DNA of 64,000 nucleotides from a virus (lineage: Duplodnaviria; Heunggongvirae; Uroviricota; Caudoviricetes): positions 107,468 to 171,467 of IMG/VR virus record IMGVR_UViG_3300014204_000107; one strand, written 5' to 3'. The position numbers were made by a program, and so were the translations under genes. Below the pieces are notes generated by a model, which did not search any database, had not been told where the DNA came from, and saw only the letters and a program-made list of their open reading frames with translations. Below are positions 41,013-61,936 of the stretch, piece after piece (within the stretch, counting starts at the first letter, position 1; each line of letters opens with the position of its first letter).

Positions 41013-41777
41013 ATGTATTATTTGGTATATAAAATAACAAACAAATTAAATAATAAAATCTATATTGGTTGCCACATAACTGAAAAATTTAATGACAAAT
41101 ATATGGGTAGTGGTAGATTAATTAGAAAAGCAATTAAAAAGTATGGGTTAGAAAATTTTACTAAAGCAGTCTTATATAATTTTGATAACCAACTTGATAT
41201 GTTGAAGAAAGAAGCGGAGTTGGTTAATAAAGAGTTTATTAAACGCAAAGACACATATAATATTACCGAAGGTGGTACGTTTAATACTAAAGGAATTGCA
41301 GTAGTTAAAGATGCTAATGGTAATGTATTATTTGTTCCTGCAAAAGATAAAAGAATTAAAGATAGAATATTGGTTGGAATGACAACGGGACTTGTTCCTG
41401 TTAAAGATATCAATGGCAATATATTTAGCATTGGCACGAATGATCCAAAATACTTGTCAGGAGAATTTGTTCATATATCTAAAGGTCTTGTTACAGCAAA
41501 AGATAAAGATAGCAATTATTATAATGTTTCAATTGATGATGAAAGAATTAAGTCCGGTGAATTAGTTGGTACAATGAAAGGATTAAAACACACGGATGAA
41601 GCAAAAAAGAAAATTGGAATGGCTAACAAAATACATCAAATGGGCAGTGGGAATAATCAATATGGAACTTGTTGGATTTATAATGTTAAGCTAAAAGAAA
41701 ATAAGAAAATAAAAACTGAAGATCTTGCGTCTTATTTAATAGACGGGTGGATTAAAGGTAGAAAAATGAAATTTTAA
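41013..41777 (+). CDS. Seg-like GIY-YIG homing endonuclease (copy 1)
   Basis: YLVYKITN..NNKIYIG.H...YMGSG; repeated VKDxxGNxFxVxxxDxRxxSGELV units. Confidence 0.85.
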   Translation: MYYLVYKITNKLNNKIYIGCHITEKFNDKYMGSGRLIRKAIKKYGLENFTKAVLYNFDNQLDMLKKEAELVNKEFIKRKDTYNITEGGTFNTKGIAVVKDANGNVLFVPAKDKRIKDRILVGMTTGLVPVKDINGNIFSIGTNDPKYLSGEFVHISKGLVTAKDKDSNYYNVSIDDERIKSGELVGTMKGLKHTDEAKKKIGMANKIHQMGSGNNQYGTCWIYNVKLKENKKIKTEDLASYLIDGWIKGRKMKF

Positions 41778-43925: not shown

Positions 43926-44303
43926 GGGCCATACAGGCTTTGATTGCAATGACGATGAAATGTAAGCAAGCATCACCTTATCTAATATGTGATTCATAAA
44001 TTATTAGGTAAACAACTAAACGGCAACGCACAAATAAATGCAGAGGATATAATGTCATATCCTACTATTGTAACAGTTACTAAACCTGTTGCAAGGGTTG
44101 AGCACTTCGAAGAAGTGCTAGCATAAACAGCAAAATTAGTAAGCACGTTTTCTTGCGTGTAAAACACAGGATACAGTTTTTTCTGCTTGTTCTCGAAATA
44201 ATAATAAAAGCAGATATTTTGTTCGCTAAGAAAAACGAAATAAGCTTGTAGAAAATATTTATAAACATTGTAAGACTCGAGTTCGAATCTCGAATGGTCC
44301 ACC
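43926..44303 (+). ncRNA. ssrA: tmRNA
   Basis: acceptor gggccat/atggtcc with G3:U70 and A73, T arm ctcgag-ttcgaat-ctcga, P2 ttgcaatg/cattgtaa, pk1-like atcac/gtgat plus ctaata/tattag, tag frame 44022-44126. Confidence 0.9.
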
Positions 44304-44350
44304 GTGTTGGGTAGAAGACACCAACTAATGTGCCACACACGATGAGAAAT

Positions 44351-44785: not shown

Positions 44786-46681
44786 CTAAATCTTAATCAC
44801 TCCTGCTATTTTAACATACAGTTCTTCAAATGAAAATGGTTTGCTGATATATTCGTCAAAGCCATTTTGAAGTGCTTTATCTTTTTCATTATCCATAGTA
44901 ATTGCTGTTACCGCAATTAATTTTATATTACTGTCATATGCTTTTGCTTCTTTTACTATTTGATAGCCATCTTTATATGGTAGATGAATATCACACAAAA
45001 TTAAATCAACTCTATAATTTTTTAATACATTTAAAATATTCTTACCAGTATATGAACTTATAATATTTGCATTAGTTTCCTTTAGTAATAGTTTTAATAA
45101 TTCATATGAATCTTTATCGTCGTCTATAATTAGCACAGTTTTATTAGTTAAATTTGGTATGCATTCACTTAAAGAATTAGTTATAGTTGAATTATCTTCA
45201 ATATCTCCATCAACAGCCATATATTTAACATCGAAATAGAACTTAGACCCGGACCCAAGATTTGAATTTATTTTTATAGTTGAAAAATTAAGAATATTAG
45301 CAAGCTTTTTTGCAATTGATAATCCAAGTCCAACGCCTCTATATTTCTTTCCTGATGCAATTTGTTTAAATGGGCTAAATAAATATAATTGATCCTTTTT
45401 AGATATACCTCTGCCGGTATCTTTAACATAAATGGTTAATTCATCATTGTTGATAATATCATATCCAAATTCAATAACACCTTCATCTGTAAATTTAAGT
45501 GCGTTATCAAGTAAATTATTTAATATTTGTTTTAATCTATCACCATCAGTATTAATGATTATATCTTTATCTTTGATAATATTAAGTTTTATAAACAAAT
45601 TTTCTTTATTTAGTTTTGTTTTTTCTTGCTCATATACAATAAATAAATCAAATAATAATTTATTTAATTTAACTGGCCCTATGTCAAGACTAAGTTGATC
45701 AGATTCTAACTTGGAAAAATCAAGTATATCATCTATAAGTCGCAATAATTTGTTACCATTATTATTGATAATATTAACATAATCAATTTTATCTGACGTG
45801 GGCAAGTCTTTCTGCAACAATAAATTAGAAAATCCTATTATCGCATTCATTGGTGAACGTATTTCATGACTCATGCTGGCCAGGAAGATTGATTTTAATT
45901 TGAATGCATTTTCTGCATCTTCCTTGGCCTTCTTAATATCAGAAGTTAATGTGATATGTTCCGTAATATCATTAATTATTGATATTATATATTTATAACC
46001 ACCAATTTGTATTATTTCTGCATTAAAAAGTGTATTCTTTTTAATACCATCCCTATCTTTAAATATAACAGGCAAATTTTTGATTTTATTATTTTTTGAT
46101 AACAATAACCTAATATTATAAAAATCGGCCTCATCTGAATATAAATTTAGTTCCAATGCGGACTTTCCTATGACATCATTTTTTTTATATTTTGAAATAT
46201 TAACAAACGCGGTATTAATATCTGTGATTTTGTTTGTTTTAATATTTGTAATCAGTATTGGCAATGGTGTTGCATTAAATATAACTTTGAAATTCTTTTC
46301 AAATGTGGTTTCACTATAAGTTGATGAGCCAATACCAATTAATATTTCTTCATTTTTAATAATTCCTTTTATTATTCTTATGCTTATTGGAATTAATTTA
46401 CCAGAAGATGATACCCACGGTATTTTGCATGATACAACACTGTCATCTATCATTTTCTTAAATGTAGATTGGACACATTTTCTTTTATCTAGGTGGTGGA
46501 GGTCAAATATTTGTAATGATAGTAATTCTTTTTTACTATATTCTAATATTTCTTGCGCCGTTTTATTTGAATATAAAATATTTCCGCTATAATTTACAAT
46601 TATCACGCAATCCGATAGATTGTCTATTAAACTAATTATATTTTTACAATAACCACTATCAAAAATATCTTTATCGTTCAT
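44786..46681 (-). CDS. hybrid sensor histidine kinase (2 PAS-HisKA-HATPase-REC)
   Basis: SMSHEIRSPMNAIIGF, QILNNLLDNALKFT, DTGRGI, GLGLSI; REC IIDDD..CDIHLP..SKP. Confidence 0.95.
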   Translation of the reverse strand: MNDKDIFDSGYCKNIISLIDNLSDCVIIVNYSGNILYSNKTAQEILEYSKKELLSLQIFDLHHLDKRKCVQSTFKKMIDDSVVSCKIPWVSSSGKLIPISIRIIKGIIKNEEILIGIGSSTYSETTFEKNFKVIFNATPLPILITNIKTNKITDINTAFVNISKYKKNDVIGKSALELNLYSDEADFYNIRLLLSKNNKIKNLPVIFKDRDGIKKNTLFNAEIIQIGGYKYIISIINDITEHITLTSDIKKAKEDAENAFKLKSIFLASMSHEIRSPMNAIIGFSNLLLQKDLPTSDKIDYVNIINNNGNKLLRLIDDILDFSKLESDQLSLDIGPVKLNKLLFDLFIVYEQEKTKLNKENLFIKLNIIKDKDIIINTDGDRLKQILNNLLDNALKFTDEGVIEFGYDIINNDELTIYVKDTGRGISKKDQLYLFSPFKQIASGKKYRGVGLGLSIAKKLANILNFSTIKINSNLGSGSKFYFDVKYMAVDGDIEDNSTITNSLSECIPNLTNKTVLIIDDDKDSYELLKLLLKETNANIISSYTGKNILNVLKNYRVDLILCDIHLPYKDGYQIVKEAKAYDSNIKLIAVTAITMDNEKDKALQNGFDEYISKPFSFEELYVKIAGVIKI

Positions 46682-47915: not shown

Positions 47916-47988
47916 TAGAGAATGTGAGATTTGAACTCCTCCTCTGCGCCCCAAACGCAGAATGCAACCTGGTTACAACTCATTCTCT
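47916..47988 (-). tRNA. tRNA-Pro(TGG)
   Basis: ctgcg-ttTGGgg-cgcag. Confidence 0.8.
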
Positions 47989-48748
47989 ATTTTAATCTCC
48001 TTCCTACAATCCACCCACTATTTAAGTAGCATTGCAAGTCATTGACTTTAATTTTTTTATTTTCTTTTAGTTCAACATTATAAATCCAGCAAGTACCATA
48101 TTGAGAATTTTTATTTCCTTTTTGGTGTATGCTGTTTGCTTTACCTATTTTCTTTTTTGTTTCTTCTGTGTGTTTAATTCCAGTCATCGTACCAACTAAT
48201 TCGCCAGATTTAATTCTTAAATCATCACTTGGTACACAAAAATAATTACCGTTTTTGTCTTTTGCAACAGTTGTACCTTTTCGTACGTGCACAAGATCCC
48301 CAGACATATATTTTGTATCTGATATTGGGATGCAAAAATAATTATCATCTTTATCTTTTACTGTTACAAATCCTTTAGATGTTGCTACTAATTCACCAGA
48401 CAAATATCGTTGATCATTTACACTTACACTAAAAGTATTGCCAGTTTTATCTTTGACGGCAACAAATCCTTTCGTGTTTATTACTCCACCCTCAATTATA
48501 TTATATGTATCTTTGCGTTTAATGAATTCTTTATTAACGAGTTCTGATTCTTTCTTCAACATATCAAGCTTATTATCAAAATTATATAGAATTGCTTTAG
48601 TAAAGTTTTCTAAACCATATTTTTTAATAGACATCCACAAATATTTGCCCGACCCCATATATCCATCATTAATATTTTTAGTAACATGACACCCAATATA
48701 GATTTTACCATTAATTGTGTTCGTTATTTTATATACCAAATAATACAT
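47987..48748 (-). CDS. Seg-like GIY-YIG homing endonuclease (copy 2)
   Basis: close paralog of 41013-41777 with a near-identical upstream leader; its TAG overlaps the tRNA-Pro 5' end. Confidence 0.85.
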   Translation of the reverse strand: MYYLVYKITNTINGKIYIGCHVTKNINDGYMGSGKYLWMSIKKYGLENFTKAILYNFDNKLDMLKKESELVNKEFIKRKDTYNIIEGGVINTKGFVAVKDKTGNTFSVSVNDQRYLSGELVATSKGFVTVKDKDDNYFCIPISDTKYMSGDLVHVRKGTTVAKDKNGNYFCVPSDDLRIKSGELVGTMTGIKHTEETKKKIGKANSIHQKGNKNSQYGTCWIYNVELKENKKIKVNDLQCYLNSGWIVGRRLK

Positions 48749-51522: not shown

Positions 51523-52419
51523 ATGGCAAAACGAACAATATTTTTTATATTGCTAATATTGGCATCCTTTGTCATAGCTATTTTTGCAGCATATAGTTCT
51601 GTAATGGGATTGGCTGCAGTTTTTAGTGGTGCTAAAACAGAAATAATGCTACTGGCGGGAGGACTTGAGTTTGCAAAAATAGTGGTTGTTTCATTATTAG
51701 TACAATTCTGGGGGTCATTACAAAAAATTCTTAGAACATTTCTTATTACGCTTGTTGTATTTGTAATGATATTAGCATCTGGTGGTATATATGGATTTTT
51801 ATCAAACGCATACCAAAAAAATGCAACTACTATTGAACAAATTGACAAGTCTGTTGAATTAATAAATAATAAAAAAACATTATTCATACAACAGAAGCAA
51901 ATGTTTGAAACACAAATCAGCTCGAAAAATAATAGAGTAGATAAATTAACAAATTTGCGTGAACAGCAGGAAAATAGAATTGATAATTTAATCAGTAAAG
52001 AAAAAGATTATCAATCACAATCTACTCAAAAATTCATACAGCAAGCAGATAAAGACATTCTCCAACTAAATACTGAAATTACAACCTTATCAATTAGTGT
52101 TAATTCGATTAATGATTCTATAGCAAAATATGAAACAAAATCACTTGAAATTTCAAATAGTGGAGTATCCGTAGAAGTTTGGGCATTAAAATATTTAGCA
52201 AAACTTACAGGTAAATCAATTGACGCTGTAGCTAATTGGTACCTTTTAATTTGTATGTTTGTTATAGATCCATTTGCCATACTATTGTTAGTAGTAGCCA
52301 ATATGTTAATAGGCAATTTACGCAAAAAAGATTCGAATAATACAAATTATCAGACGATAACAGATGCCCCAATAGCGGCAAAATCTAAATATAGGGATAT
52401 TCATTTCAAAAATAGCTAA
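51523..52419 (+). CDS. membrane protein with long coiled coil
   Basis: three N-terminal TM helices, heptad region, C-terminal TM with FVIDPFAI. Confidence 0.75.
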   Translation: MAKRTIFFILLILASFVIAIFAAYSSVMGLAAVFSGAKTEIMLLAGGLEFAKIVVVSLLVQFWGSLQKILRTFLITLVVFVMILASGGIYGFLSNAYQKNATTIEQIDKSVELINNKKTLFIQQKQMFETQISSKNNRVDKLTNLREQQENRIDNLISKEKDYQSQSTQKFIQQADKDILQLNTEITTLSISVNSINDSIAKYETKSLEISNSGVSVEVWALKYLAKLTGKSIDAVANWYLLICMFVIDPFAILLLVVANMLIGNLRKKDSNNTNYQTITDAPIAAKSKYRDIHFKNS

Positions 52420-52470
52420 AAAATTAGGAATATTGATAAAAAAATACTATAATTATACAAAACAAATTTC

Positions 52471-52932
52471 ATGGAAAAAACAATTAGAAATAAAACATTT
52501 ACGAGTGCTGATGAAGTACGTGAATTAGCAAAAAAAACCATTATTAATGAAAAATTAGACTTGATGGGTGCGCAAGTTGAGTATTTATTTGTCTCACCGG
52601 CAATAAACAAAACAACAGTAGGACGATGTATCAGAACGGGTCCCGAATTAAACTTTTTTAGCGGTGCGGATTATGTTATTGAAATAAGTCAAGACGTATG
52701 GGATGAGTTAGATGATGATGTAAAATATATTTTGCTCCACCACGAATTGTTGCATATATATCCTGTATCAAATGATAAAAAAGGCACTATTGAATATAAA
52801 TTACGTGATCACGATATTCAGGATTTCGATTTAATTATTAAAAAATACGGCACAGATTGGTTTAAAAAACTTAAAACAGTAATGTCAGATACATTAGGTG
52901 CTGATTATTTAAATGATATTATATCGATATAG
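52471..52932 (+). CDS. putative phage metallopeptidase
   Basis: LLHHELLHI...DHDIQDF..IIKKYG. Confidence 0.8.
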   Translation: MEKTIRNKTFTSADEVRELAKKTIINEKLDLMGAQVEYLFVSPAINKTTVGRCIRTGPELNFFSGADYVIEISQDVWDELDDDVKYILLHHELLHIYPVSNDKKGTIEYKLRDHDIQDFDLIIKKYGTDWFKKLKTVMSDTLGADYLNDIISI

Positions 52933-52933
52933 T

Positions 52934-53593
52934 ATGATAAATGACTATAATTTTATATATGACACAAACCAATTAGAGAATAAAATATCAGATACTGTTG
53001 AAAAGTACGAAGCTGAAAAAATTATTGACTTATTAGCAGCATTTTTAATAAAACAGCAGACTTCTCCGGCAATATGTGCCCCACAAATTGGTTTATTTAA
53101 GCAAGTATTATTGGTTCATTATGATACGGGATTGTTCTTTTTAGTAAATCCGGTTATAATTGAACAAAAATACCCAATTCCCTATTTAGAAGCATGTATA
53201 ACATATCCTAACGAACTTATTGAAACAATGAGATATGCATCCATACGCGTTAAATCAGATAATTTTAAGGAACCAATTAAAATTGGTATTAATGGTAAAT
53301 TTGATAATACAGATGATAGATTAAAGCATCCAGCAGTTTCATTAGCAGCTTATATACAACAAGGTATAGATTTTTTTAATGGTGTCCTTCCAAAGCAAAG
53401 ATTGTTTGATAGCATGATGAAAGCTATGCAGCCTAACATTACTCCTACGAACATAATAGATGGTGAAACATATAGAAGGAATGAAGTTGTTGAATTAGAA
53501 AAAAATGGACTTACCATTTCCATTAAATTTAAGAAAATTAAACAATACATTGACGACGGGTGGCAAGTTATTAAAAAACAATCTAATGGATAA
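52934..53593 (+). CDS. peptide-deformylase-like protein with degenerate active site
   Basis: AICAPQIG, VNPVI, EACITYP; HExDH replaced by QGIDF. Confidence 0.75.
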   Translation: MINDYNFIYDTNQLENKISDTVEKYEAEKIIDLLAAFLIKQQTSPAICAPQIGLFKQVLLVHYDTGLFFLVNPVIIEQKYPIPYLEACITYPNELIETMRYASIRVKSDNFKEPIKIGINGKFDNTDDRLKHPAVSLAAYIQQGIDFFNGVLPKQRLFDSMMKAMQPNITPTNIIDGETYRRNEVVELEKNGLTISIKFKKIKQYIDDGWQVIKKQSNG

Positions 53594-54251
53594 CAATAAT
53601 AATATTGAAAATATAATATATAAACCATTAGATAACTTACGACAATTAGACTATAGATTTGATGCTGAACATGCTAAAATTTATATTACATCTTTTATAG
53701 ATGAAGGTTTAATTGAGTTATTAATGATGCGGGTTGATTATATCATTAATACATGGGCTAGAATGGGTATGCGGGATGATTTAAAATCTATTGATATAAT
53801 TTTAAGCTCATATGGCGGAGACATTTATGAATCTTTGGCAGTAATAGACTATTTTGAACATTTGCTTTATAGTGAAAAAATTAGAATTAATGTTGATTGC
53901 TATGGCAAAGCAATGTCATCAGCTATAATATTATTATCCGCTGCAACTGGTAAACGTAGAATGTCAAAAAGAGCGTTCATATTGTTTGATGAATTTAAAA
54001 ATACTGCTCCAATAAATAAAAATGCTGGAGTTGGGTTTAAAACGACATCAAAAACAAATGGAAAGGGCAATTCGGAATATGATGAAAAAATTGATAATCA
54101 TATGGATGAATTAAATGGGTATATGATAAAAATATTAGTTGATTCAACTAATAGGGACGAGTCGTTTTGGGTAGATATACAAAAGAAAGATGTATATTTG
54201 CCTGCAGAAAAGTGTTTAGAATATAATTTAATAGATGAAATAATAACTTAA
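53586..54251 (+). CDS. ClpP-like protease (catalytic His apparently replaced)
   Basis: LSSYGGDIY, CYGKAMSSA, KRRMSKRAFILFD, YLPAEKCLEYNLIDEI. Confidence 0.8.
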   Translation: MDNNNNIENIIYKPLDNLRQLDYRFDAEHAKIYITSFIDEGLIELLMMRVDYIINTWARMGMRDDLKSIDIILSSYGGDIYESLAVIDYFEHLLYSEKIRINVDCYGKAMSSAIILLSAATGKRRMSKRAFILFDEFKNTAPINKNAGVGFKTTSKTNGKGNSEYDEKIDNHMDELNGYMIKILVDSTNRDESFWVDIQKKDVYLPAEKCLEYNLIDEIIT

Positions 54252-54263
54252 AAAATAATAATT

Positions 54264-55013
54264 ATGAAATTAACAGCAGAACAATTAGGAGAAAATTATC
54301 AAAAACTTATTGACATTATCAATGAATATATTGCACCTGGCCCACGACAAGATGCACTATTAAAATTGTATGATGATTTAGCTAATAGAATAGCATTAGC
54401 ACCAGCATCTACCAAAATGTCATTTCACAATGCATTTCCAGGTGGATATGTACTGCATGTATTAAATGTGGTTAGTTGTGCATTAAAGCAGCACAAATTA
54501 TGGGAATACTGCGGTGCAGATATGGTTGGATATACCAAAGAAGAACTCGTATTTGCAGCACTAAATCATGATTTAGGTAAAATTGGAGATTTGGAGAATG
54601 ACCAATACATACCTCAGGACAATCAATGGTATGTAACAAATCGGGGAGAGATATACAAATATAATCCAGAAATTGATAATATGCCACATCAATATAGGGC
54701 AATTTATTTATTACAGCATTATGGTGTAAAAATGACCGTACAAGAAATGATTGCGATAGAAGCACATGAAGGCTTATTCGAGGATGGAAATAAAACGTAT
54801 TATATCCAATATGATGAAGACAAAAAGTTCAAAACTAATTTGCCCATAATTATACATTTTGCTGATTATATGGCTGCTAGAATTGAGTTTGAAGCGTATA
54901 TGAAAACAAAGAAAGGTAAAAACATTAATTCAGATAATTATTTGGAACAAAAATCACAAAAAACATTGAGTGCCAAGCAAGAAATAAGCACAATGTTTGA
55001 TAAGGAGAAATAA
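54264..55013 (+). CDS. HD-domain phosphohydrolase
   Basis: FHNAFPGGYVLHV, ALNHDLGKIG, HFAD. Confidence 0.85.
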   Translation: MKLTAEQLGENYQKLIDIINEYIAPGPRQDALLKLYDDLANRIALAPASTKMSFHNAFPGGYVLHVLNVVSCALKQHKLWEYCGADMVGYTKEELVFAALNHDLGKIGDLENDQYIPQDNQWYVTNRGEIYKYNPEIDNMPHQYRAIYLLQHYGVKMTVQEMIAIEAHEGLFEDGNKTYYIQYDEDKKFKTNLPIIIHFADYMAARIEFEAYMKTKKGKNINSDNYLEQKSQKTLSAKQEISTMFDKEK

Positions 55014-55014
55014 C

Positions 55015-55464
55015 ATGGCAACTTCTTTAATTATTATATCAATAGCACTCTTTTTATCCGCTACTGCCGCGGCAATATTAGTTTATTATTATCGTAAACA
55101 TACTGGTATTATCGGGCAACTGTCGATTGATAACAAAAGAATTATTGATCAGAATGCATATTATGAGAAGTGTTTGTCGACATCACTTGAAAAAATTCAG
55201 TATTATGAAACTGATTTTGAAAAAACATCCGCAGAAATAAAGGAAATTACAAATGAAAATTATTTATTGATTACTTGGTTTAATGAATTTATAACACGAA
55301 TTAAATTTGTTGAATCAAAAATACAATCGATTGATGTACTTGGTTCATTTGAAGCGGATGATGAGACTGGTGCAATATATAAAGAAATTAAAGAAATGGC
55401 AGTTTTATTAGTAGAAATGAGAAAATTAATAGAGTTACAAACAGAAGAGAAAGAAAAAGAATAA
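55015..55464 (+). CDS. membrane-anchored coiled-coil protein
   Basis: N-terminal TM; GSFEADDETG motif. Confidence 0.7.
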   Translation: MATSLIIISIALFLSATAAAILVYYYRKHTGIIGQLSIDNKRIIDQNAYYEKCLSTSLEKIQYYETDFEKTSAEIKEITNENYLLITWFNEFITRIKFVESKIQSIDVLGSFEADDETGAIYKEIKEMAVLLVEMRKLIELQTEEKEKE

Positions 55465-55465
55465 T

Positions 55466-56182
55466 ATGTCAAAGAAACCTTATTTTGATATAAATACTGA
55501 AAAAGCTATTATTGCATATAATAAATCAACTGACCTGGCGGAGCGTGAAATTTTATTTAGAAAGTTTATATACCAATCTTTTAATAAACTCGCTGAAAAT
55601 TTAATTAATACTAAAAAAGCATACTATATGTCTGACAGTGTTGAAGAAAGTAAGTATGAGGTGGTGACTTATTTATTGGAAAAGCTTAAAAAATATGATG
55701 AAACTAAAGGAAAAGCGTTTTCATATTTTACCGTAGTTGCAGGAAACTATATTATTATACAAAATAAAATTGCGTATAATGATAGGAAAACAAAAATGAG
55801 CATTGAGACTGCGGAGATGGATATAGATATGGACGAAAGTTTATTTACATATCATGAGTACGACATGCCAGAAAATGTGACCACTTCGTTTTATAATATA
55901 TACGTTGAATATTTAGATAGACAATTAGATAATTTATTTCCAAAATCCCGCGACAATAAAATAGCAAATGCTGTATTATTAATTATGAAAAATAGGGATC
56001 ACGCAGATAATAATAAAAAGATTTTATATGCTATAATAAGAGAAATAGTCCCAGACGCAAAGACCCAACAAATAACAAGACTTATTAATAAAATGAAGAG
56101 TTTATACGATATTATATTTGATATATATACGAGTGGTGGAAAAATAGACTATAATACTAATTATACCTATATGGCAGACTAA
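55466..56182 (+). CDS. phage sigma-factor-like (late transcription) protein
   Basis: region-2-like LKKYDETKGKAFSYFTVVAGNYI. Confidence 0.7.
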   Translation: MSKKPYFDINTEKAIIAYNKSTDLAEREILFRKFIYQSFNKLAENLINTKKAYYMSDSVEESKYEVVTYLLEKLKKYDETKGKAFSYFTVVAGNYIIIQNKIAYNDRKTKMSIETAEMDIDMDESLFTYHEYDMPENVTTSFYNIYVEYLDRQLDNLFPKSRDNKIANAVLLIMKNRDHADNNKKILYAIIREIVPDAKTQQITRLINKMKSLYDIIFDIYTSGGKIDYNTNYTYMAD

Positions 56183-56192
56183 TGGGGATATC

Positions 56193-56597
56193 ATGGCAAA
56201 TTTAACTGATGAAATTTTTGAAGGCAAAACATTTGCAGAATTATTATCCGATATTTATAATAATGCAAAGGAAAAGGATAAAATTATTAACAATTTAATG
56301 ATTATTATTAATGGTGTGCTAGAAAAGCAGAAAGATAATATGAGGTTAACTGATTTAACAGTAATGATGCCTATGATTAATGAATTAAATAGTACAAGCA
56401 TTAAAAATAATGATATTTTAGTTAAATTGGCTGCGGTAGTGCAAAGAAGTTTGCAAAAAGATTCTACTACATCTGCATTAGATGATTTGCTTATTTCAAA
56501 AGAAGAAATGTTAGAAATTCAAGAGTCTACAAGTAATGATAAACCCATAAAAATACAACAATTGGTTGATAAAGTTACTGCGTTGGAGAAAAAATAA
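56193..56597 (+). CDS. conserved phage hypothetical protein
   Basis: IFEGKTF..LL.DIY.N...NDIL.KLA.VVQR. Confidence 0.7.
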   Translation: MANLTDEIFEGKTFAELLSDIYNNAKEKDKIINNLMIIINGVLEKQKDNMRLTDLTVMMPMINELNSTSIKNNDILVKLAAVVQRSLQKDSTTSALDDLLISKEEMLEIQESTSNDKPIKIQQLVDKVTALEKK

Positions 56598-57898
56598 TGT
56601 TCAAAACAAACCCAGTTTGGAATACTTTTTATGCTGATGCATTAAATAAAACCCATCGTACACTAACTAAAGAGGTTGGTGAAGTACAATGGCTATTTGA
56701 ATCTGCTGAAGTGGTTGATATTATACTTGATAATAAGCATCCGTTATATAAAGATGATAGAGATATTGGGTGTATTGTTATTAAATTAGTTAATACAAGC
56801 GTAGAAACCAATAGTAGTAAAAATATTACAGTTGCAAAACCTGCAAGCCCGTATATAAAAAAATATCCGCTTAAGCATGAAATTGTTACAGTATTTAAAT
56901 CTTCCAATACTGATGCGGGAGAAATTCATAAATCTGTTTCTTATTATTATTTGGATGTTGTCAATATATGGGGGATGGCCAATCACAACGTGCTCCCCGG
57001 CGTATCATACATTCCCGACCCAGAAAATAAAACCCAAAATTATATACAATTTACTGGTAATGCAGTTAATCCAACAGTTACAGAACCTGATGTTGGCGAT
57101 ACATTTCAAAAAAATGAAAATGTTCCAGATTTACAGCCATATGAAGGTGATATTATATTTTTGGGTAGGTGGGGCCAATCAATTAGATTTGGTAGCACAG
57201 TTAGAATGACCAATGTTGCAAATACTTGGTCATCAAAAGGCAATAATGGGGACCCAATTATAATAATTCAAGCTACAAAAGCAGTAAAAGGTTCTTTTTA
57301 CAAAGTTGAAGATGTAAATAGTGATAGTAGTTCTATTTATATATGTGATGGGCAAGCAATTGGCATAGAATTGCCATCAACCGAATCAAATTCGTTTAGA
57401 CTCGGTGGCACTAAACCTAAAGCCACCAAAGAATATGTAGGCAGGCATATTACAATTAGTTCAGATAGACTTTTATTATCTGCTAAAAACGAGTCAATAA
57501 TACTTAATTCTAAAAAAACAATATGGTTATCTGCGGATAATTCTGTAAATATAGATAGTGCAAATAATTTACTAATTAATTCAGGCGGACCAATAAAATT
57601 CTCATCGTCTAAAATATTTGATATAACATCAAATAGCGGATTTAATTTGAAAGCAAATACAAAATGTGTATTTGATGCACCCCAAATATTTATTGGAGCG
57701 AACGCAACAGAAATGGCAGTATTAGGCAATCAGTTGTTAGCAATATTGACAGAATTATTAACAACCATTACTGCAGATGCAGCCACCCCCAGAGCAGTAT
57801 CCGGTACTGTGACGGTTCCATCGACATATTTAGGACAATATTCACAGATATTGTCCAAACTACAGCAAATATTAAGTAAGAAAGTATTTATAGAATAG
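56597..57898 (+). CDS. baseplate hub/spike (gp5-like) protein
   Basis: OB-fold-like N-terminus (YPL..E.V), EGD.IF.GRWGQSIRFGS, SDRLLLSAK, beta-rich C-terminus. Confidence 0.65.
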   Translation: MFKTNPVWNTFYADALNKTHRTLTKEVGEVQWLFESAEVVDIILDNKHPLYKDDRDIGCIVIKLVNTSVETNSSKNITVAKPASPYIKKYPLKHEIVTVFKSSNTDAGEIHKSVSYYYLDVVNIWGMANHNVLPGVSYIPDPENKTQNYIQFTGNAVNPTVTEPDVGDTFQKNENVPDLQPYEGDIIFLGRWGQSIRFGSTVRMTNVANTWSSKGNNGDPIIIIQATKAVKGSFYKVEDVNSDSSSIYICDGQAIGIELPSTESNSFRLGGTKPKATKEYVGRHITISSDRLLLSAKNESIILNSKKTIWLSADNSVNIDSANNLLINSGGPIKFSSSKIFDITSNSGFNLKANTKCVFDAPQIFIGANATEMAVLGNQLLAILTELLTTITADAATPRAVSGTVTVPSTYLGQYSQILSKLQQILSKKVFIE

Positions 57899-57995
57899 CA
57901 ACTGCTACTAATGAGGGGAATTGAATTCCCCTTTTTTGTTGAAAAATTTCTACAATCTATATTTATATTAGACAAAAAGTATTTAAGGGGGTTTT

Positions 57996-58568
57996 ATGAC
58001 TATTAATTTTAAGCAATTGGTTACACTTTTAAGAGAAGCAGTGCGTGAAGAAGTAAAAATTGCTATACGAGAAGAGTTTGCAAAGCTTGATAAAACTATG
58101 ATTGTTGAACGCAAGCAAGTACGGCCGCAGGAATCTGTGGTTAAAAAGCAAACAACAACTAAACAAAAAGAAATAATATCGGAAGAGCAAATTGCAGGCA
58201 ACCCAATGTTATCAATGATTGCATTGACAGCAAAAGAAATGCAGGAAGATGGTAGTATTAATACGTTTGGCAAGGACGGTGATGGCGGGTTTATGGGCCG
58301 GTCAATACTTGATTTTAAAGATGAAATGAAAGCCGGAAGCAAGCCGCAACAAACAGAAGATGGTTGGGAAGTATTAGGCAATAAAGTGCTTTCAACAAAT
58401 GATGTTGCATCTACTGCGCCAATAGTACCGGATATGGATTCAAATAGTTATGCTGAAGCAGAGGAGTATGACAACCCAATATTAAATAATATAATGTCTG
58501 GTAAAATGGCTAAAATATTACAAAGCTCTTATCAGCACGATGGTTCACACGCACCAACCGGAGGATAA
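57996..58568 (+). CDS. hypothetical protein with LLREAVREEV N-terminal motif
   Basis: motif similar to the 35-37 kb family. Confidence 0.7.
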   Translation: MTINFKQLVTLLREAVREEVKIAIREEFAKLDKTMIVERKQVRPQESVVKKQTTTKQKEIISEEQIAGNPMLSMIALTAKEMQEDGSINTFGKDGDGGFMGRSILDFKDEMKAGSKPQQTEDGWEVLGNKVLSTNDVASTAPIVPDMDSNSYAEAEEYDNPILNNIMSGKMAKILQSSYQHDGSHAPTGG

Positions 58569-58573
58569 TATTA

Positions 58574-58993
58574 ATGGAAAAAAAAATTAATCCATTAGAT
58601 TTTGATAATAATGCATTTATTGGCTTAAAGCTACCACTATTTTATTCCGATAATCAATCGTTTAATATGAATATGGTTACCGTAGATCACGTTAAAACAA
58701 AATTAAAAAATTTAATATTTACTCAAGAAGGCGAACGAGTAATGAATCCAACATTTGGGTGTGATTTTAATAAAGTATTATTTGAGCAAGAAACGGGCGA
58801 TAATATGGTATTTTATATAGAGTCGCACATCAAAGATAAAATAAAAACGTGGATACCGGAAGTAGAAGTACAAGAAGTTAAAATTAATGTCGATTTATAT
58901 ACTCAACATGCAATAAATGTTTTAATAATATATAAAATTATATACGAACCGGATACAAAAGAAAACTTATCCTTTACAATTAATATGAATTAA
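58574..58993 (+). CDS. baseplate wedge protein, GPW/gp25 family
   Basis: LKNLIFTQEGERVMNPTFGC...LFEQ...WIPEV. Confidence 0.9.
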   Translation: MEKKINPLDFDNNAFIGLKLPLFYSDNQSFNMNMVTVDHVKTKLKNLIFTQEGERVMNPTFGCDFNKVLFEQETGDNMVFYIESHIKDKIKTWIPEVEVQEVKINVDLYTQHAINVLIIYKIIYEPDTKENLSFTINMN

Positions 58994-59010
58994 TCATTGG
59001 GTTAACAACT

Positions 59011-60885
59011 ATGGCTGACAATGTTACAAAAGAAATACGATATTTAAATAAGGATTTTTCTTCATTTAGAAAAAACTTAATTAACTACGCTAAAATATAT
59101 TTTAGTAATATATTTAATGACTATAGCGACACTGATCCATCAATAATGTTTATTGAAATGGCAGCATATGTTGGTGATGTTCTTTCGTATTATATGGATA
59201 ACCAATTTAAAGAGTCGTTATTAGCGTATGCAGAAGAAAAAAGAAATGTGTATGCTATTTCACAAGCATTAGGATATAAACCAAGAATAATAGTTCCAGC
59301 TGCCACAACGTTAGATGTATATCAAATAGTACCAGCAACAGGCACTAATGGAGAAACACCTGATTATAATTATACATTGCGTATAGATAAAAATATGCAA
59401 GTAGCATCTGCAACGAACCGTTCTATTATATTTAAAACAAGGGATCCTATTAATTTTGGGTTTTCAAATAATGCAAGTCCATTAGAAATATCTATTTATA
59501 GAACAGACGGGGCTGGCAAACCAACCCATTATCTATTAAAAAAACAAGCATTAGCGGAAGCTGGGATATTAAAGAATACTGCAATAACGGTCACAGATCC
59601 ACAAAAATATTTTAAATTCACAATACCAGAAAGTAATATAATATCAATAGATAGAATATATGATGCGGATGGGAATGATTGGTATGAAGTACCTTATTTG
59701 GCGCAGGATACAATATTTTATGATGTTCTTAATGAAATATCTAATGACCCAACATTAGCACAATATAATGATAGTGTACCGTATATTTTAAAACAAAAGA
59801 AAGTTCCTCGCAGATTTGTCACAAGATATACAAGTGAAGGGGCGGTAGAAGTTCAGTTTGGTGCAGGAATAAGTGCAAATCCGGATGAAGAAATATTGCC
59901 AACGCCAGATAATATTGGATTAATGACACCTACAAATGTAGAAAAATTAAATTATAATTGGGACTTATCTAATTTTCTTTATAGTACTGCATATGGGCAA
60001 GTGCCCCATAATACTACTTTAACAGTAGAATATACGGTTGGCGGTGGAATTTCATCAAATGTATTAGCAAATAATCTTACAATATTATATGATGTAACTG
60101 CTGTAGTTAAAGCAGGATCTGACGCATCAACATCAGATTATGTTAAAAATTCACTTGCAGTAAACAACCCAGACCCAGCAACAGGCGGAAGAGATGGTGA
60201 AACTGCTGATGAAATACGACTAAATGCTATGGCAAGCTTTCAATCGCAAGGAAGAGCAGTCACAAAAGAAGATTATATATTGCGTGCATTATCAATGCCT
60301 CCTAAATTTGGCAGTATTTCTAAAGTATATATTGTGCAGGATGACCAATTAAATTTTATTGATTATCGCAATAGACTTAGAAATCCATTATCTATGAATA
60401 TGTATGTTTTGAGTTTTAATGCAGACAAACAATTAACTGTTGCAAATCAAGCCATAAAAACAAACTTGAGAACATATATTGATAAATATAGAATGATGAC
60501 CGATGCAATTAACATTAAAGACGCATATATTGTTAATATTGGTGTCAAATTCGAAATTATGATATTAAATAATTATGCGAGCCAAGAGGTATTGGTTGAA
60601 TGTATTAAGGTTCTTAAAGATTATTTTAATATTGATAGGTGGCAAATCAACCAACCAATATACATTAATGATATATATAGTAAGTTATTAGCGGTTCGTG
60701 GTGTACAAAACATATTATCAATTAAGATAGAAAATTTATTTGATGAAACATTGGGATATCAAACAAACGTATATGACATAAATGTTGCTACTATTAATAA
60801 TATCATATATCCATCAATGGACCCATGCATATTCGAATGCAGATTTCCTGACAATGATATTTCGGGACGATGCATAACCTATTAG
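59011..60885 (+). CDS. baseplate wedge protein (T4 gp6/baseplate J-like)
   Basis: YLNKDFSSFR, FIEMAAYVGDVLSYY, VQFGAG, GGRDGET.DEIR, Q.RAVT.EDY. Confidence 0.9.
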   Translation: MADNVTKEIRYLNKDFSSFRKNLINYAKIYFSNIFNDYSDTDPSIMFIEMAAYVGDVLSYYMDNQFKESLLAYAEEKRNVYAISQALGYKPRIIVPAATTLDVYQIVPATGTNGETPDYNYTLRIDKNMQVASATNRSIIFKTRDPINFGFSNNASPLEISIYRTDGAGKPTHYLLKKQALAEAGILKNTAITVTDPQKYFKFTIPESNIISIDRIYDADGNDWYEVPYLAQDTIFYDVLNEISNDPTLAQYNDSVPYILKQKKVPRRFVTRYTSEGAVEVQFGAGISANPDEEILPTPDNIGLMTPTNVEKLNYNWDLSNFLYSTAYGQVPHNTTLTVEYTVGGGISSNVLANNLTILYDVTAVVKAGSDASTSDYVKNSLAVNNPDPATGGRDGETADEIRLNAMASFQSQGRAVTKEDYILRALSMPPKFGSISKVYIVQDDQLNFIDYRNRLRNPLSMNMYVLSFNADKQLTVANQAIKTNLRTYIDKYRMMTDAINIKDAYIVNIGVKFEIMILNNYASQEVLVECIKVLKDYFNIDRWQINQPIYINDIYSKLLAVRGVQNILSIKIENLFDETLGYQTNVYDINVATINNIIYPSMDPCIFECRFPDNDISGRCITY

Positions 60886-60892
60886 GAGTATT

Positions 60893-61936
60893 ATGATTAT
60901 ATATAAAGTATTGAATAAAATTAATGGTAAATCGTATATAGGCCAGACAAAAAATAAATTATCTGACAGACAATATCAGCATATTAATTCTGCCCTTATA
61001 AAAGATAGTGATATGGTATTTCATAGAGCATTAAAAAAATATGGAATTAATAATTTTGAATGGAATATAATATGCGAATGTAATACATTAGAAGAATTAA
61101 ATGAAAAAGAAATATTTTTTATAGATAAATTTAAAACATTAGTTCCAACTGGGTATAATATATCTATTGGTGGAAGTAATTTGAATTATTGGTTATATAT
61201 AGACGAAAATAGACGAAAATTAATATCAGCAAAAATAAGCAATGCAAATAAGGGTCGAATACAAACGGAGGAAGAAAAAAGAAAACGGTCAGAGTCATGC
61301 AAAAAATCATGCAAAGGAAAGCCATTATCTGAAGAATCTAAACAAAAGTTGAGAGATGCAAATATTGGGAAAATAATATCGGAAGAAACACGACGAAAAA
61401 TTAGTGCTGCAAATACGGGGCGCAAAAGATTACCAATATCAGCTGAAACTCGATTAAAATTAAGTATATCACATATGGGAAAATCATCAATTAAAAAAGG
61501 AAGCACACTCACATCTGAACATAAAAAGAAAATAAGTAATGCATTGACAGGAAGGAAATTAACAGCGGAACACATAGAACATTCCAGGTTAGGTAATATT
61601 GGAAAAAAACGGACTGATGAAACTAAGCAAAAAATAAGTGAATCTAATAAAGGAAACAGGAATGCATTGGGATGCATACGCACACCGGAGACGAAGAAAA
61701 AGATGAGTATTGCTAGAAAAAAGTCTATGCGTGACGAAGTAATAATAACTTGCCAACAATGTGGAAATATATTTAAAGTGCCGTACGGCAAAAGAGCACG
61801 AAAATATTGCAATAATCGATGTGCTGCCGATGCTCGCACAGGAAATAACAACCCATCGAAGCGTTTTGACGTGCGACAAAAAATCAGCAATACTAAAAAA
61901 GGTAAACCCTGTTTTATTGGGAGAAAATATAAATGA
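60893..61936 (+). CDS. GIY-YIG homing endonuclease with multiple NUMOD3 repeats
   Basis: IIYKV.NKINGKSYIGQT...R..H, GYNISIGG; repeated (S/T)EET(R/K)xKIS..xG. Confidence 0.9.
   Translation: MIIYKVLNKINGKSYIGQTKNKLSDRQYQHINSALIKDSDMVFHRALKKYGINNFEWNIICECNTLEELNEKEIFFIDKFKTLVPTGYNISIGGSNLNYWLYIDENRRKLISAKISNANKGRIQTEEEKRKRSESCKKSCKGKPLSEESKQKLRDANIGKIISEETRRKISAANTGRKRLPISAETRLKLSISHMGKSSIKKGSTLTSEHKKKISNALTGRKLTAEHIEHSRLGNIGKKRTDETKQKISESNKGNRNALGCIRTPETKKKMSIARKKSMRDEVIITCQQCGNIFKVPYGKRARKYCNNRCAADARTGNNNPSKRFDVRQKISNTKKGKPCFIGRKYK

Follow-up and report, generated by a model that had tools for sequence, protein, structure and literature searches.

The window (the whole stretch of 64,000 nucleotides that was analysed) comes from a complete virus record of 299,351 bp with direct terminal repeats and 32% G+C, and this genome carries a single tmRNA, located at 43926-44304 of the window. 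The identity of the RNA can be read directly. ARAGORN calls a one-piece tmRNA at 43926-44303 on the plus strand, where the original prediction had placed it, and the Rfam model RF00023 matches 43926-44304 over its whole length (1-374) with 70.1 bits, above the gathering score of 47 (E 3e-25). The features assigned within the gene are listed here, with the source of each assignment in parentheses.

43926-44304, plus strand: tmRNA (ssrA) gene, one-piece, 379 nt (ARAGORN; RF00023)
43926-43932, plus strand: 5′ strand of the acceptor stem, GGGCCAU, with G3 at 43928 (pairs with 44294-44300)
43980-44009, plus strand: PK1 hairpin, AUCUAAU (43980-43986) with AUUAGGU (44003-44009) (Rfam alignment and sequence reading)
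44010-44021, plus strand: single-stranded spacer AAACAACUAAAC, with U at -5 and A at -4 of the resume codon (sequence)
44022-44126, plus strand: tag reading frame, 34 codons and TAA, GNAQINAEDIMSYPTIVTVTKPVARVEHFEEVLA (translation)
44022-44024, plus strand: favoured resume codon, GGC (Gly) (Rfam consensus resume codon; PK1 spacing; relatives)
44040-44042, plus strand: alternative resume codon, GCA, in the same frame, giving a 28-aa tag (ARAGORN)
44043-44066, plus strand: codons of the conserved core EDIMSYPT (core common to about 40 phage tmRNAs)
44068-44094, plus strand: 9-bp hairpin within the tag frame, aligned to helix 5 by Rfam (Rfam and fold)
44101-44119, plus strand: 8-bp hairpin AGCACUUC-GAA-GAAGUGCU over the last tag codons, with the stop codon 4 nt downstream (minimum-energy fold)
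44277-44293, plus strand: T-arm, UCGAG, loop UUCGAAU, CUCGA (sequence and Rfam; the stem covaries among relatives)
44294-44304, plus strand: 3′ strand of the acceptor stem, AUGGUCC (44294-44300), discriminator A at 44301, then CC and G (sequence)

The tRNA-like domain has a 7-bp acceptor stem, G3:U70, a T-arm with a GUUCGAAUC-type loop and a discriminator A. The G3:U70 wobble (43928:44298) is the alanine identity pair and is invariant in all four sequences of the sub-clade to which the window belongs (the window and the IMG/VR loci L211, L184 and L200). In the alignment of these four sequences, compensatory changes are seen at acceptor positions 5-7, and both-sided, pairing-preserving changes occur in 25 of the 49 predicted pairs, located in the acceptor stem, helix 2 and the T-arm. 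Folding showed the tag region to be more structured than its shuffles (z = -3.7), and the hairpin that the original prediction had drawn over the last codons is indeed part of the minimum-energy fold. The gene ends in ACC-G, so that the last A of CCA, which is not encoded, would have to be added post-transcriptionally. The PK2-PK4 region was aligned by Rfam at low posterior probability, with the four-sequence consensus fold recovering only two helices there, and the total score of 70 bits compares with 117-186 bits for the bacterial tmRNAs of our Bacteroidota sample. A promoter and terminator scan found no consensus terminator for the tmRNA gene, and promoter-like sites near it were no more frequent than in shuffled sequence.

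The phage encodes a T4-type major capsid protein (gp23, PF07068) and a large terminase. Its tmRNA lies within an island of about 28 tRNA genes, together with IF3 and an RNase H-like gene, and a peptide deformylase gene follows further on. A search for smpB was negative both in the complete genome of 299,351 bp and in five complete genomes that carry tmRNAs of the same family (defined below). As the phage lacks smpB, the SmpB and AlaRS of the host would have to serve this tmRNA. A CCA-adding-type nucleotidyltransferase domain (PF01743) is split over two ORFs (G000:C1 178837-179058 and 180166-180288) about 1.1 kb apart, and this gene may be interrupted by an intron or homing element. Paralogous GIY-YIG/NUMOD homing endonuclease-like genes, with weak Pfam matches, flank the tRNA/tmRNA island at 41013-41777 (plus strand) and 47987-48748 (minus strand), and their homologues (28-47% identity) lie near the tmRNA in five family loci (L183, L194, L200, L221 and L224). 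A gene for a cytoplasmic hybrid histidine kinase of PAS-PAS-HisKA-HATPase-REC architecture lies a short way downstream of the tmRNA, on the minus strand (44786-46681). A block of the translation island is syntenic with a distant family member, since a 20-kb contig with a main-family tmRNA (L219) carries homologues of eight window genes from 51523-60900, including the peptide deformylase.

The tag frame can also be read directly: it opens without a start codon after PK1, closes at TAA 44124-44126 and encodes a C-terminus of EEVLA. The frame from 44022 to 44126, with its VLA end, was reproduced exactly as first proposed. Two codons in this frame compete as the resume codon, and as they share it, the choice between them alters only the six N-terminal residues. 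The Rfam alignment puts the consensus resume codon on GGC 44022, as it also does on the GGC of L200 and L211, whereas ARAGORN selects GCA 44040. The 3′ strand of PK1 (AUUAGGU) ends at 44009, which leaves 12 nt before GGC 44022, compared with 12-14 nt in the main family and 30 nt for GCA 44040. Measured from the shared AGG, GGC 44022 lies 13 nt downstream and the main-family resume codon 15 nt.

The sub-clade relatives L211 (tag GNKINAEDIMSYPTSLTKNVVTESLVKDLVLA), L184 (GEINAEDIMSIPTSLTNKVLVPNVEEDLIAA) and L200 (GNTYNPEDIMSIPTSLNTAPVVALEEVELLAA) share with the window a GGGC 5′ end and a GUCCAC 3′ end. An in-frame GGC preceded by U(-5)A(-4) is present in all four members; in E. coli the equivalent positions, U85/A86, set the tag frame (PMC2481249). 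The stretch from GGC to the core differs in length within the sub-clade by 3-nt indels only. Over the 13 codons that can be aligned between the window and L211 (GN.INAEDIMSYPT), six substitutions are synonymous and none is non-synonymous, three of the six lying upstream of the core. Translation most likely resumes at GGC 44022, as originally predicted, judging from the Rfam alignment, the PK1 spacing and the three sub-clade relatives, and the tag would then be 34 aa long.

Resumption at GCA 44040 would instead give the 28-aa tag AEDIMSYPT...VLA and leave GGCAACGCACAAAUAAAU as an untranslated spacer. Besides being ARAGORN's choice, this codon is preceded by U(-5)A(-4), and its context (ACAAAUAAAU followed by GCA) is nearly identical to that in which the main family resumes, at GCA or GAC directly before EDIMS after AACAAUAAAU. 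Because of this match a 28-aa tag, or mixed use of the two codons, is possible. We nevertheless consider resumption at GCA alone unlikely, given the distance from PK1, the Rfam alignment and the pattern of substitutions and indels upstream of the core; the equivalent site is also CCG (Pro) in L200, every other resume codon called in this analysis beginning with G, and in L184 it has U in place of A at -4. Two other frames were rejected, the one from 44023 (ATHK, then stop) and one (...CNSY, then stop) whose stop codon, TAA 44081, falls within the loop of the hairpin that Rfam aligns to helix 5. Neither has a nonpolar end, and the substitutions among relatives are synonymous only in the 44022 frame. 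For annotation, this means that the resume codon given by ARAGORN can be off by several codons. The program made no call for the family loci L107 and L185 and reported only VEEDLIAA for L184, with Rfam still above threshold for L107 and L184; some family tmRNAs of phages thus escape ARAGORN altogether.

Bacterial tags are short, as the original prediction had it. In 28 of 29 sampled Bacteroidota genomes they are 9-10 aa long, the remaining one being 14 aa by ARAGORN (probably a miscall), and Gly is the first residue in eight of the 29. The known range of tmRNA tags is 8-35 aa (PMC8012679), and the 27-aa tag of M. pneumoniae has been described as unusually long (PMC8403727). For phages, we scanned IMG/VR with an anchor placed only on the tRNA-like domain, which makes the scan blind to the tag. 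It yielded 49 loci, 31 of them one-piece tmRNAs by ARAGORN, and 19 distinct tags with a median of 24 aa, 15 of which are at least 20 aa long, figures that carry the scan's own biases of T-loop and length window. Among T4-like relatives reached by way of the capsid gene, the tags are 10, 23 and 23 aa long, and the tag of the cultured mycobacteriophage Bxz1 is acidic and 25 aa long (ATDTDATVTDAEIEAFFAEEAAALV). Bxz1 has been on the tmRNA Website for a long time (PMC4131195), and databases have contained at least one long phage tag for years. A tag of 34 aa is thus unusual only in comparison with bacteria, where it is about three times the usual length; among phage tmRNAs it lies at the top of the normal range. 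Similarly, the acidic residues noted near the C-terminus are present (EEVLA) but are not special to this tag, acidic residues just before a nonpolar C-terminus being the rule in the scanned phage tags.

Other phage-only families with long tags occur among the IMG/VR loci L129-L177. For example, the tag GNTNFWSLVNESVNAPVTEELLAA was found at nine IMG/VR loci, four of them on contigs of about 270 kb, and further long phage tags include ..FTFEDAMSF..EVAIAA, GKNQAKANMAKVFSLINSSKEEVLMAA and GKDQVSANMQVVHNILNTKTSIKTEMLIAA. In most of these other long tags a nonpolar AA end follows an acidic residue at a distance of 5-6 positions.

The domain-anchored scan also recovered a locus (L143) whose tag, ANNSEDIMSIPTSHLIVGRSAFAEKTELAFAA, has EDIMS.PT in common with the window through synonymous codons. 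A search of IMG/VR with the core pattern found about 38 true members. As this search forces EDIMSxPT, claims on the core rest on the tag-blind scans, including a second one anchored on two helix-2 words, which gave 36 family loci with a bias of its own in the choice of words. Altogether the family comprises about 40 phage contigs. EDIMSxPT is read at 30 of the 36 tag-blind loci, and EDLMSIPT, EDIMSIQT, EDMMSFST or EDVMSLPT at the other six. The residues E, D, M, S and T are invariant at all 36, which defines the core as E-D-x-M-S-x-x-T (E-D-[ILVM]-M-S-[IYFL]-[PSQ]-T); the EDIMSYPT of the window fits it. The distance from the core E to the C-terminus is 26-28 residues in 31 of 31 distinct tags, and 27 in the window. 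A nonpolar C-terminus preceded by an acidic residue is likewise kept in all family members. The family with ...FTFEDAMSF...EVAIAA, mentioned above, shares ED.MS.

The main-family tag reads (A/D)EDIMSIPTSLT[RK]GxSVFxxxxELAxAA. The window tag is without the segment S-L-T-[RK]-G-x-x-V-F, having IVTVTKPVARV, and it ends in a single Ala (VLA) and not in AA; its C-terminal half, IVTVTKPVARVEHFEEVLA, is unrelated in sequence to that of the main family. With L211, L184 and L200 it forms a divergent sub-clade, recognisable by an N-terminal extension, resumption at Gly and the GGGC 5′ end. Codons 9-27 of the main-family tags lie outside the search pattern, and across 17 such tags they are variable at 9, 10 and 17 of 19 sites for codon positions 1, 2 and 3, respectively. 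Amino-acid identity is 0.74 in frame versus 0.49 and 0.52 out of frame, and Leu codons alternate between the CUN and UUR families. Judged by this mostly synonymous variation, the tag peptide is under selection.

Five of the family carriers are complete genomes (327-365 kb), and counting those with a gp23-type capsid gene as well brings the number to seven. In three of the complete relatives, of 349-365 kb, the capsid gene is gp23-type and shows about 46% identity to that of the window. The nearest capsid relatives (61-64% identity) lie on contigs of 228-318 kb in JGI or ENA, among them JGI Ga0378408_0000032 and Ga0373117_0129194 and ENA ERZ23491059 scaffold_5. When 185,579 bacterial and archaeal species genomes were scanned, two true family hits turned up, both on phage-like contigs in MAGs, and the family is restricted to phage contigs. 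One of the two (L275, JBAZIW010000001.1), submitted as a Candidatus Paceibacterota MAG, is a scaffold of 362,763 bp that matches a huge phage in IMG/VR (L228) in both length and tag. The other (L274, DAOOBP010000094.1) is a 7.3-kb contig with tRNAs and the phage tmRNA, binned into a Salinivirgaceae MAG that has a tmRNA of its own with the tag GENNFALAA. Both look like phage DNA mis-binned as bacterial.

BLASTN found no match to the tmRNA among 50,697 GenBank phage records, the exact 25-nt 3′-end pattern of the window tmRNA had no match in IMG/VR, and the neighbour genes for IF3 and the RNase H-like protein led to no relatives. The RNase H-like protein is a singleton in a set of 5.8 billion proteins. 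Phage tmRNAs as such have already been published (PMC4131195, PMC7162821, PMC12484599), and a full-text literature search found no published account of phage tag length or of the EDxMS core. The window tmRNA thus adds a new and divergent member to a phage variant, apparently not described before, of a known type of RNA.

A degenerate ClpP-like gene had also been pointed out at 53586, a hint that is not supported. The ORF (53505-54251, plus strand), which adjoins the peptide deformylase gene (52913-53593), is real but a weak match: PF00574 aligns over part of the model with E 3e-11, and the score falls well short of every NCBIfam cut-off. The alignment pairs the catalytic Ser of ClpP with the Ser of GKAMS and does not take in the region of the catalytic His, and the product is a remote member of the ClpP superfamily. 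Its occurrence does not follow the tmRNA family. The gene is absent from the five complete family genomes and has homologues in two T4-like phages without a tmRNA, and a link between the two genes was rejected for this reason. No ClpX-like ATPase was detected in the phage; the only AAA_2 match, considered as a ClpX candidate, was rejected as a MoxR/CobS-like AAA_5 ATPase. No candidate adaptor or SspB-like gene was identified either. A conserved neighbour as candidate adaptor was rejected, since no gene consistently adjoins the tmRNA across the family and only homing-endonuclease genes recur nearby.

Our preferred reading, to which we assign a probability of roughly 0.55, is that the locus encodes a working phage tmRNA that acts through host SmpB and adds an extended, probably two-part degradation tag. 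The tmRNA would be transcribed together with the phage island of tRNAs and translation factors, and its ends would be matured in a tRNA-like manner, with the last A of CCA added after transcription. Host AlaRS would charge it with alanine through G3:U70. Given that the phage has no smpB, host SmpB would deliver it to stalled ribosomes, where translation would resume, most likely at GGC 44022, so that Ala and 34 residues would be added to the stalled chain. The tmRNA may in this way keep ribosomes free during infection. The first part of the tag would be the nonpolar C-terminus after acidic residues (EEVLA), of the type that is read by AAA+ proteases; on tmRNA tags, nonpolar ssrA ends are read by ClpX, ClpA, Lon and other proteases (PMC8012679). 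The second part would be the internal core EDIMSYPT, which lies 27 residues from the C-terminus and may be recognised by an adaptor or by another protease. Because the generic nonpolar end preceded by acidic residues is kept, the tag is most simply a degradation signal, and the fixed distance of the core suggests, by analogy with known tags, a second determinant.

Long tags with an internal protease determinant have a precedent in the Mollicutes. In the 27-aa, Lon-read tags of Mycoplasma pneumoniae and Mesoplasma florum, residues far from the C-terminus aid protease recognition (PMC8403727), and these tags are the best functional analogy for that of the window. The sequences are unrelated by eye, and the Mollicutes gene is cellular, its tag having evolved in hosts lacking ClpXP; Lon as the reader of the phage tag would be an analogy only. 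The E. coli ssrA tag combines an upstream site for the adaptor SspB with a C-terminal protease site, both within 11 residues. The window tag would have the same two-determinant layout, with its determinants 27 residues apart.

The EDxMS core could, more tentatively, be a phage-specific element through which the fate of rescued proteins is re-routed or speeded, its reader being an adaptor (of phage or host), a second protease or a factor at the tunnel exit. The nascent chain held in the ribosome exit tunnel is about as long as the 26-28 residues between the core and the C-terminus. If this proposal is true, the phage would replace the host tag with an address label of its own.

The same core, conserved and at a fixed distance from the C-terminus, might also be taken to mean that the tag is not mainly a degron and that the core peptide protects, relocates or marks rescued proteins, or permits escape from host ClpXP/Lon. 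The restriction of the family to phage contigs and the window's VLA end, in place of LAA, would be consistent with such a role. This explanation seems to us distinctly unlikely, since all members keep a nonpolar, Ala-rich C-terminus of the ssrA-degron type after an acidic residue, protease recognition of such ends is known (PMC8012679) and no partner protein has been identified. The original prediction of a functional peptide or altered targeting gains indirect support from the core at its fixed distance; we do not favour its other suggestion, escape of the tag from Clp/Lon, as every relative retains the nonpolar end.

Part of the core conservation could be at the RNA level, because GAY-NNN-AUG-UC can form a conserved 4-bp hairpin. 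All four members of the sub-clade retain this hairpin, with changes from U:G to C:G, and the tag region is more structured than shuffled sequence. It is, on the other hand, quite improbable that the conservation reflects an RNA element of the mRNA-like domain, be it a small hairpin or a ligand site, and not selection on the peptide. The conservation reaches well past the hairpin (E, S-I-P-T-S-L-T), the variation is mostly at third positions, with the alternation of CUN and UUR codons for Leu, and the 4-bp stem is weak. Finally, the gene could be a defunct remnant, or could serve solely to sequester host SmpB, a decoy role proposed for the TLD-only tmRNA of mycobacteriophage DS6A (PMC4131195). 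Either would agree with the absence of smpB, the low Rfam score and the poorly aligned PK2-PK4 region, but is hardly tenable for an RNA with all parts at full length, compensatory changes in its helices and a tag frame that no relative interrupts and in which third positions vary in excess.

Compared with the bacterial one-piece tmRNA (RF00023; e.g., that of Bacteroidota with the tag GENNYALAA), the window RNA has the same G3:U70 tRNA-like domain, T-arm, long helix 2 and PK1, the same start-less frame after U(-5)A(-4) and a nonpolar C-terminus, and its Gly resume codon is as in some Bacteroidota. It differs in the 34-aa (or 28-aa) tag, the internal conserved core, the score of 70 bits and its location on a phage without smpB. 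The phage tmRNAs on record are those of the Bxz1 group and Bacillus phage G (tmRNA Website, PMC4131195; PMC12484599) and of huge phages (PMC7162821), which are likewise phage-borne one-piece tmRNAs in a tRNA cluster. The Bxz1 tag resembles that of the window in being long and acidic, and that of phage G is 13 aa; neither has sequence similarity to the window tag.

The tmRNA tag is the textbook case of a short degradation signal, and the tags of phage tmRNAs are, as a class, two to three times longer. The core peptide defined here can be used to find its reader, whether an adaptor or a protease. The long Mesoplasma tag has been the source of an orthogonal degradation tag, and the window tag may yield a new one. 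The fixed distance between core and C-terminus in a large family carried by big phage contigs (several of which are complete genomes of 300-365 kb) suggests a so far unstudied way in which phages control ribosome rescue and protein turnover.
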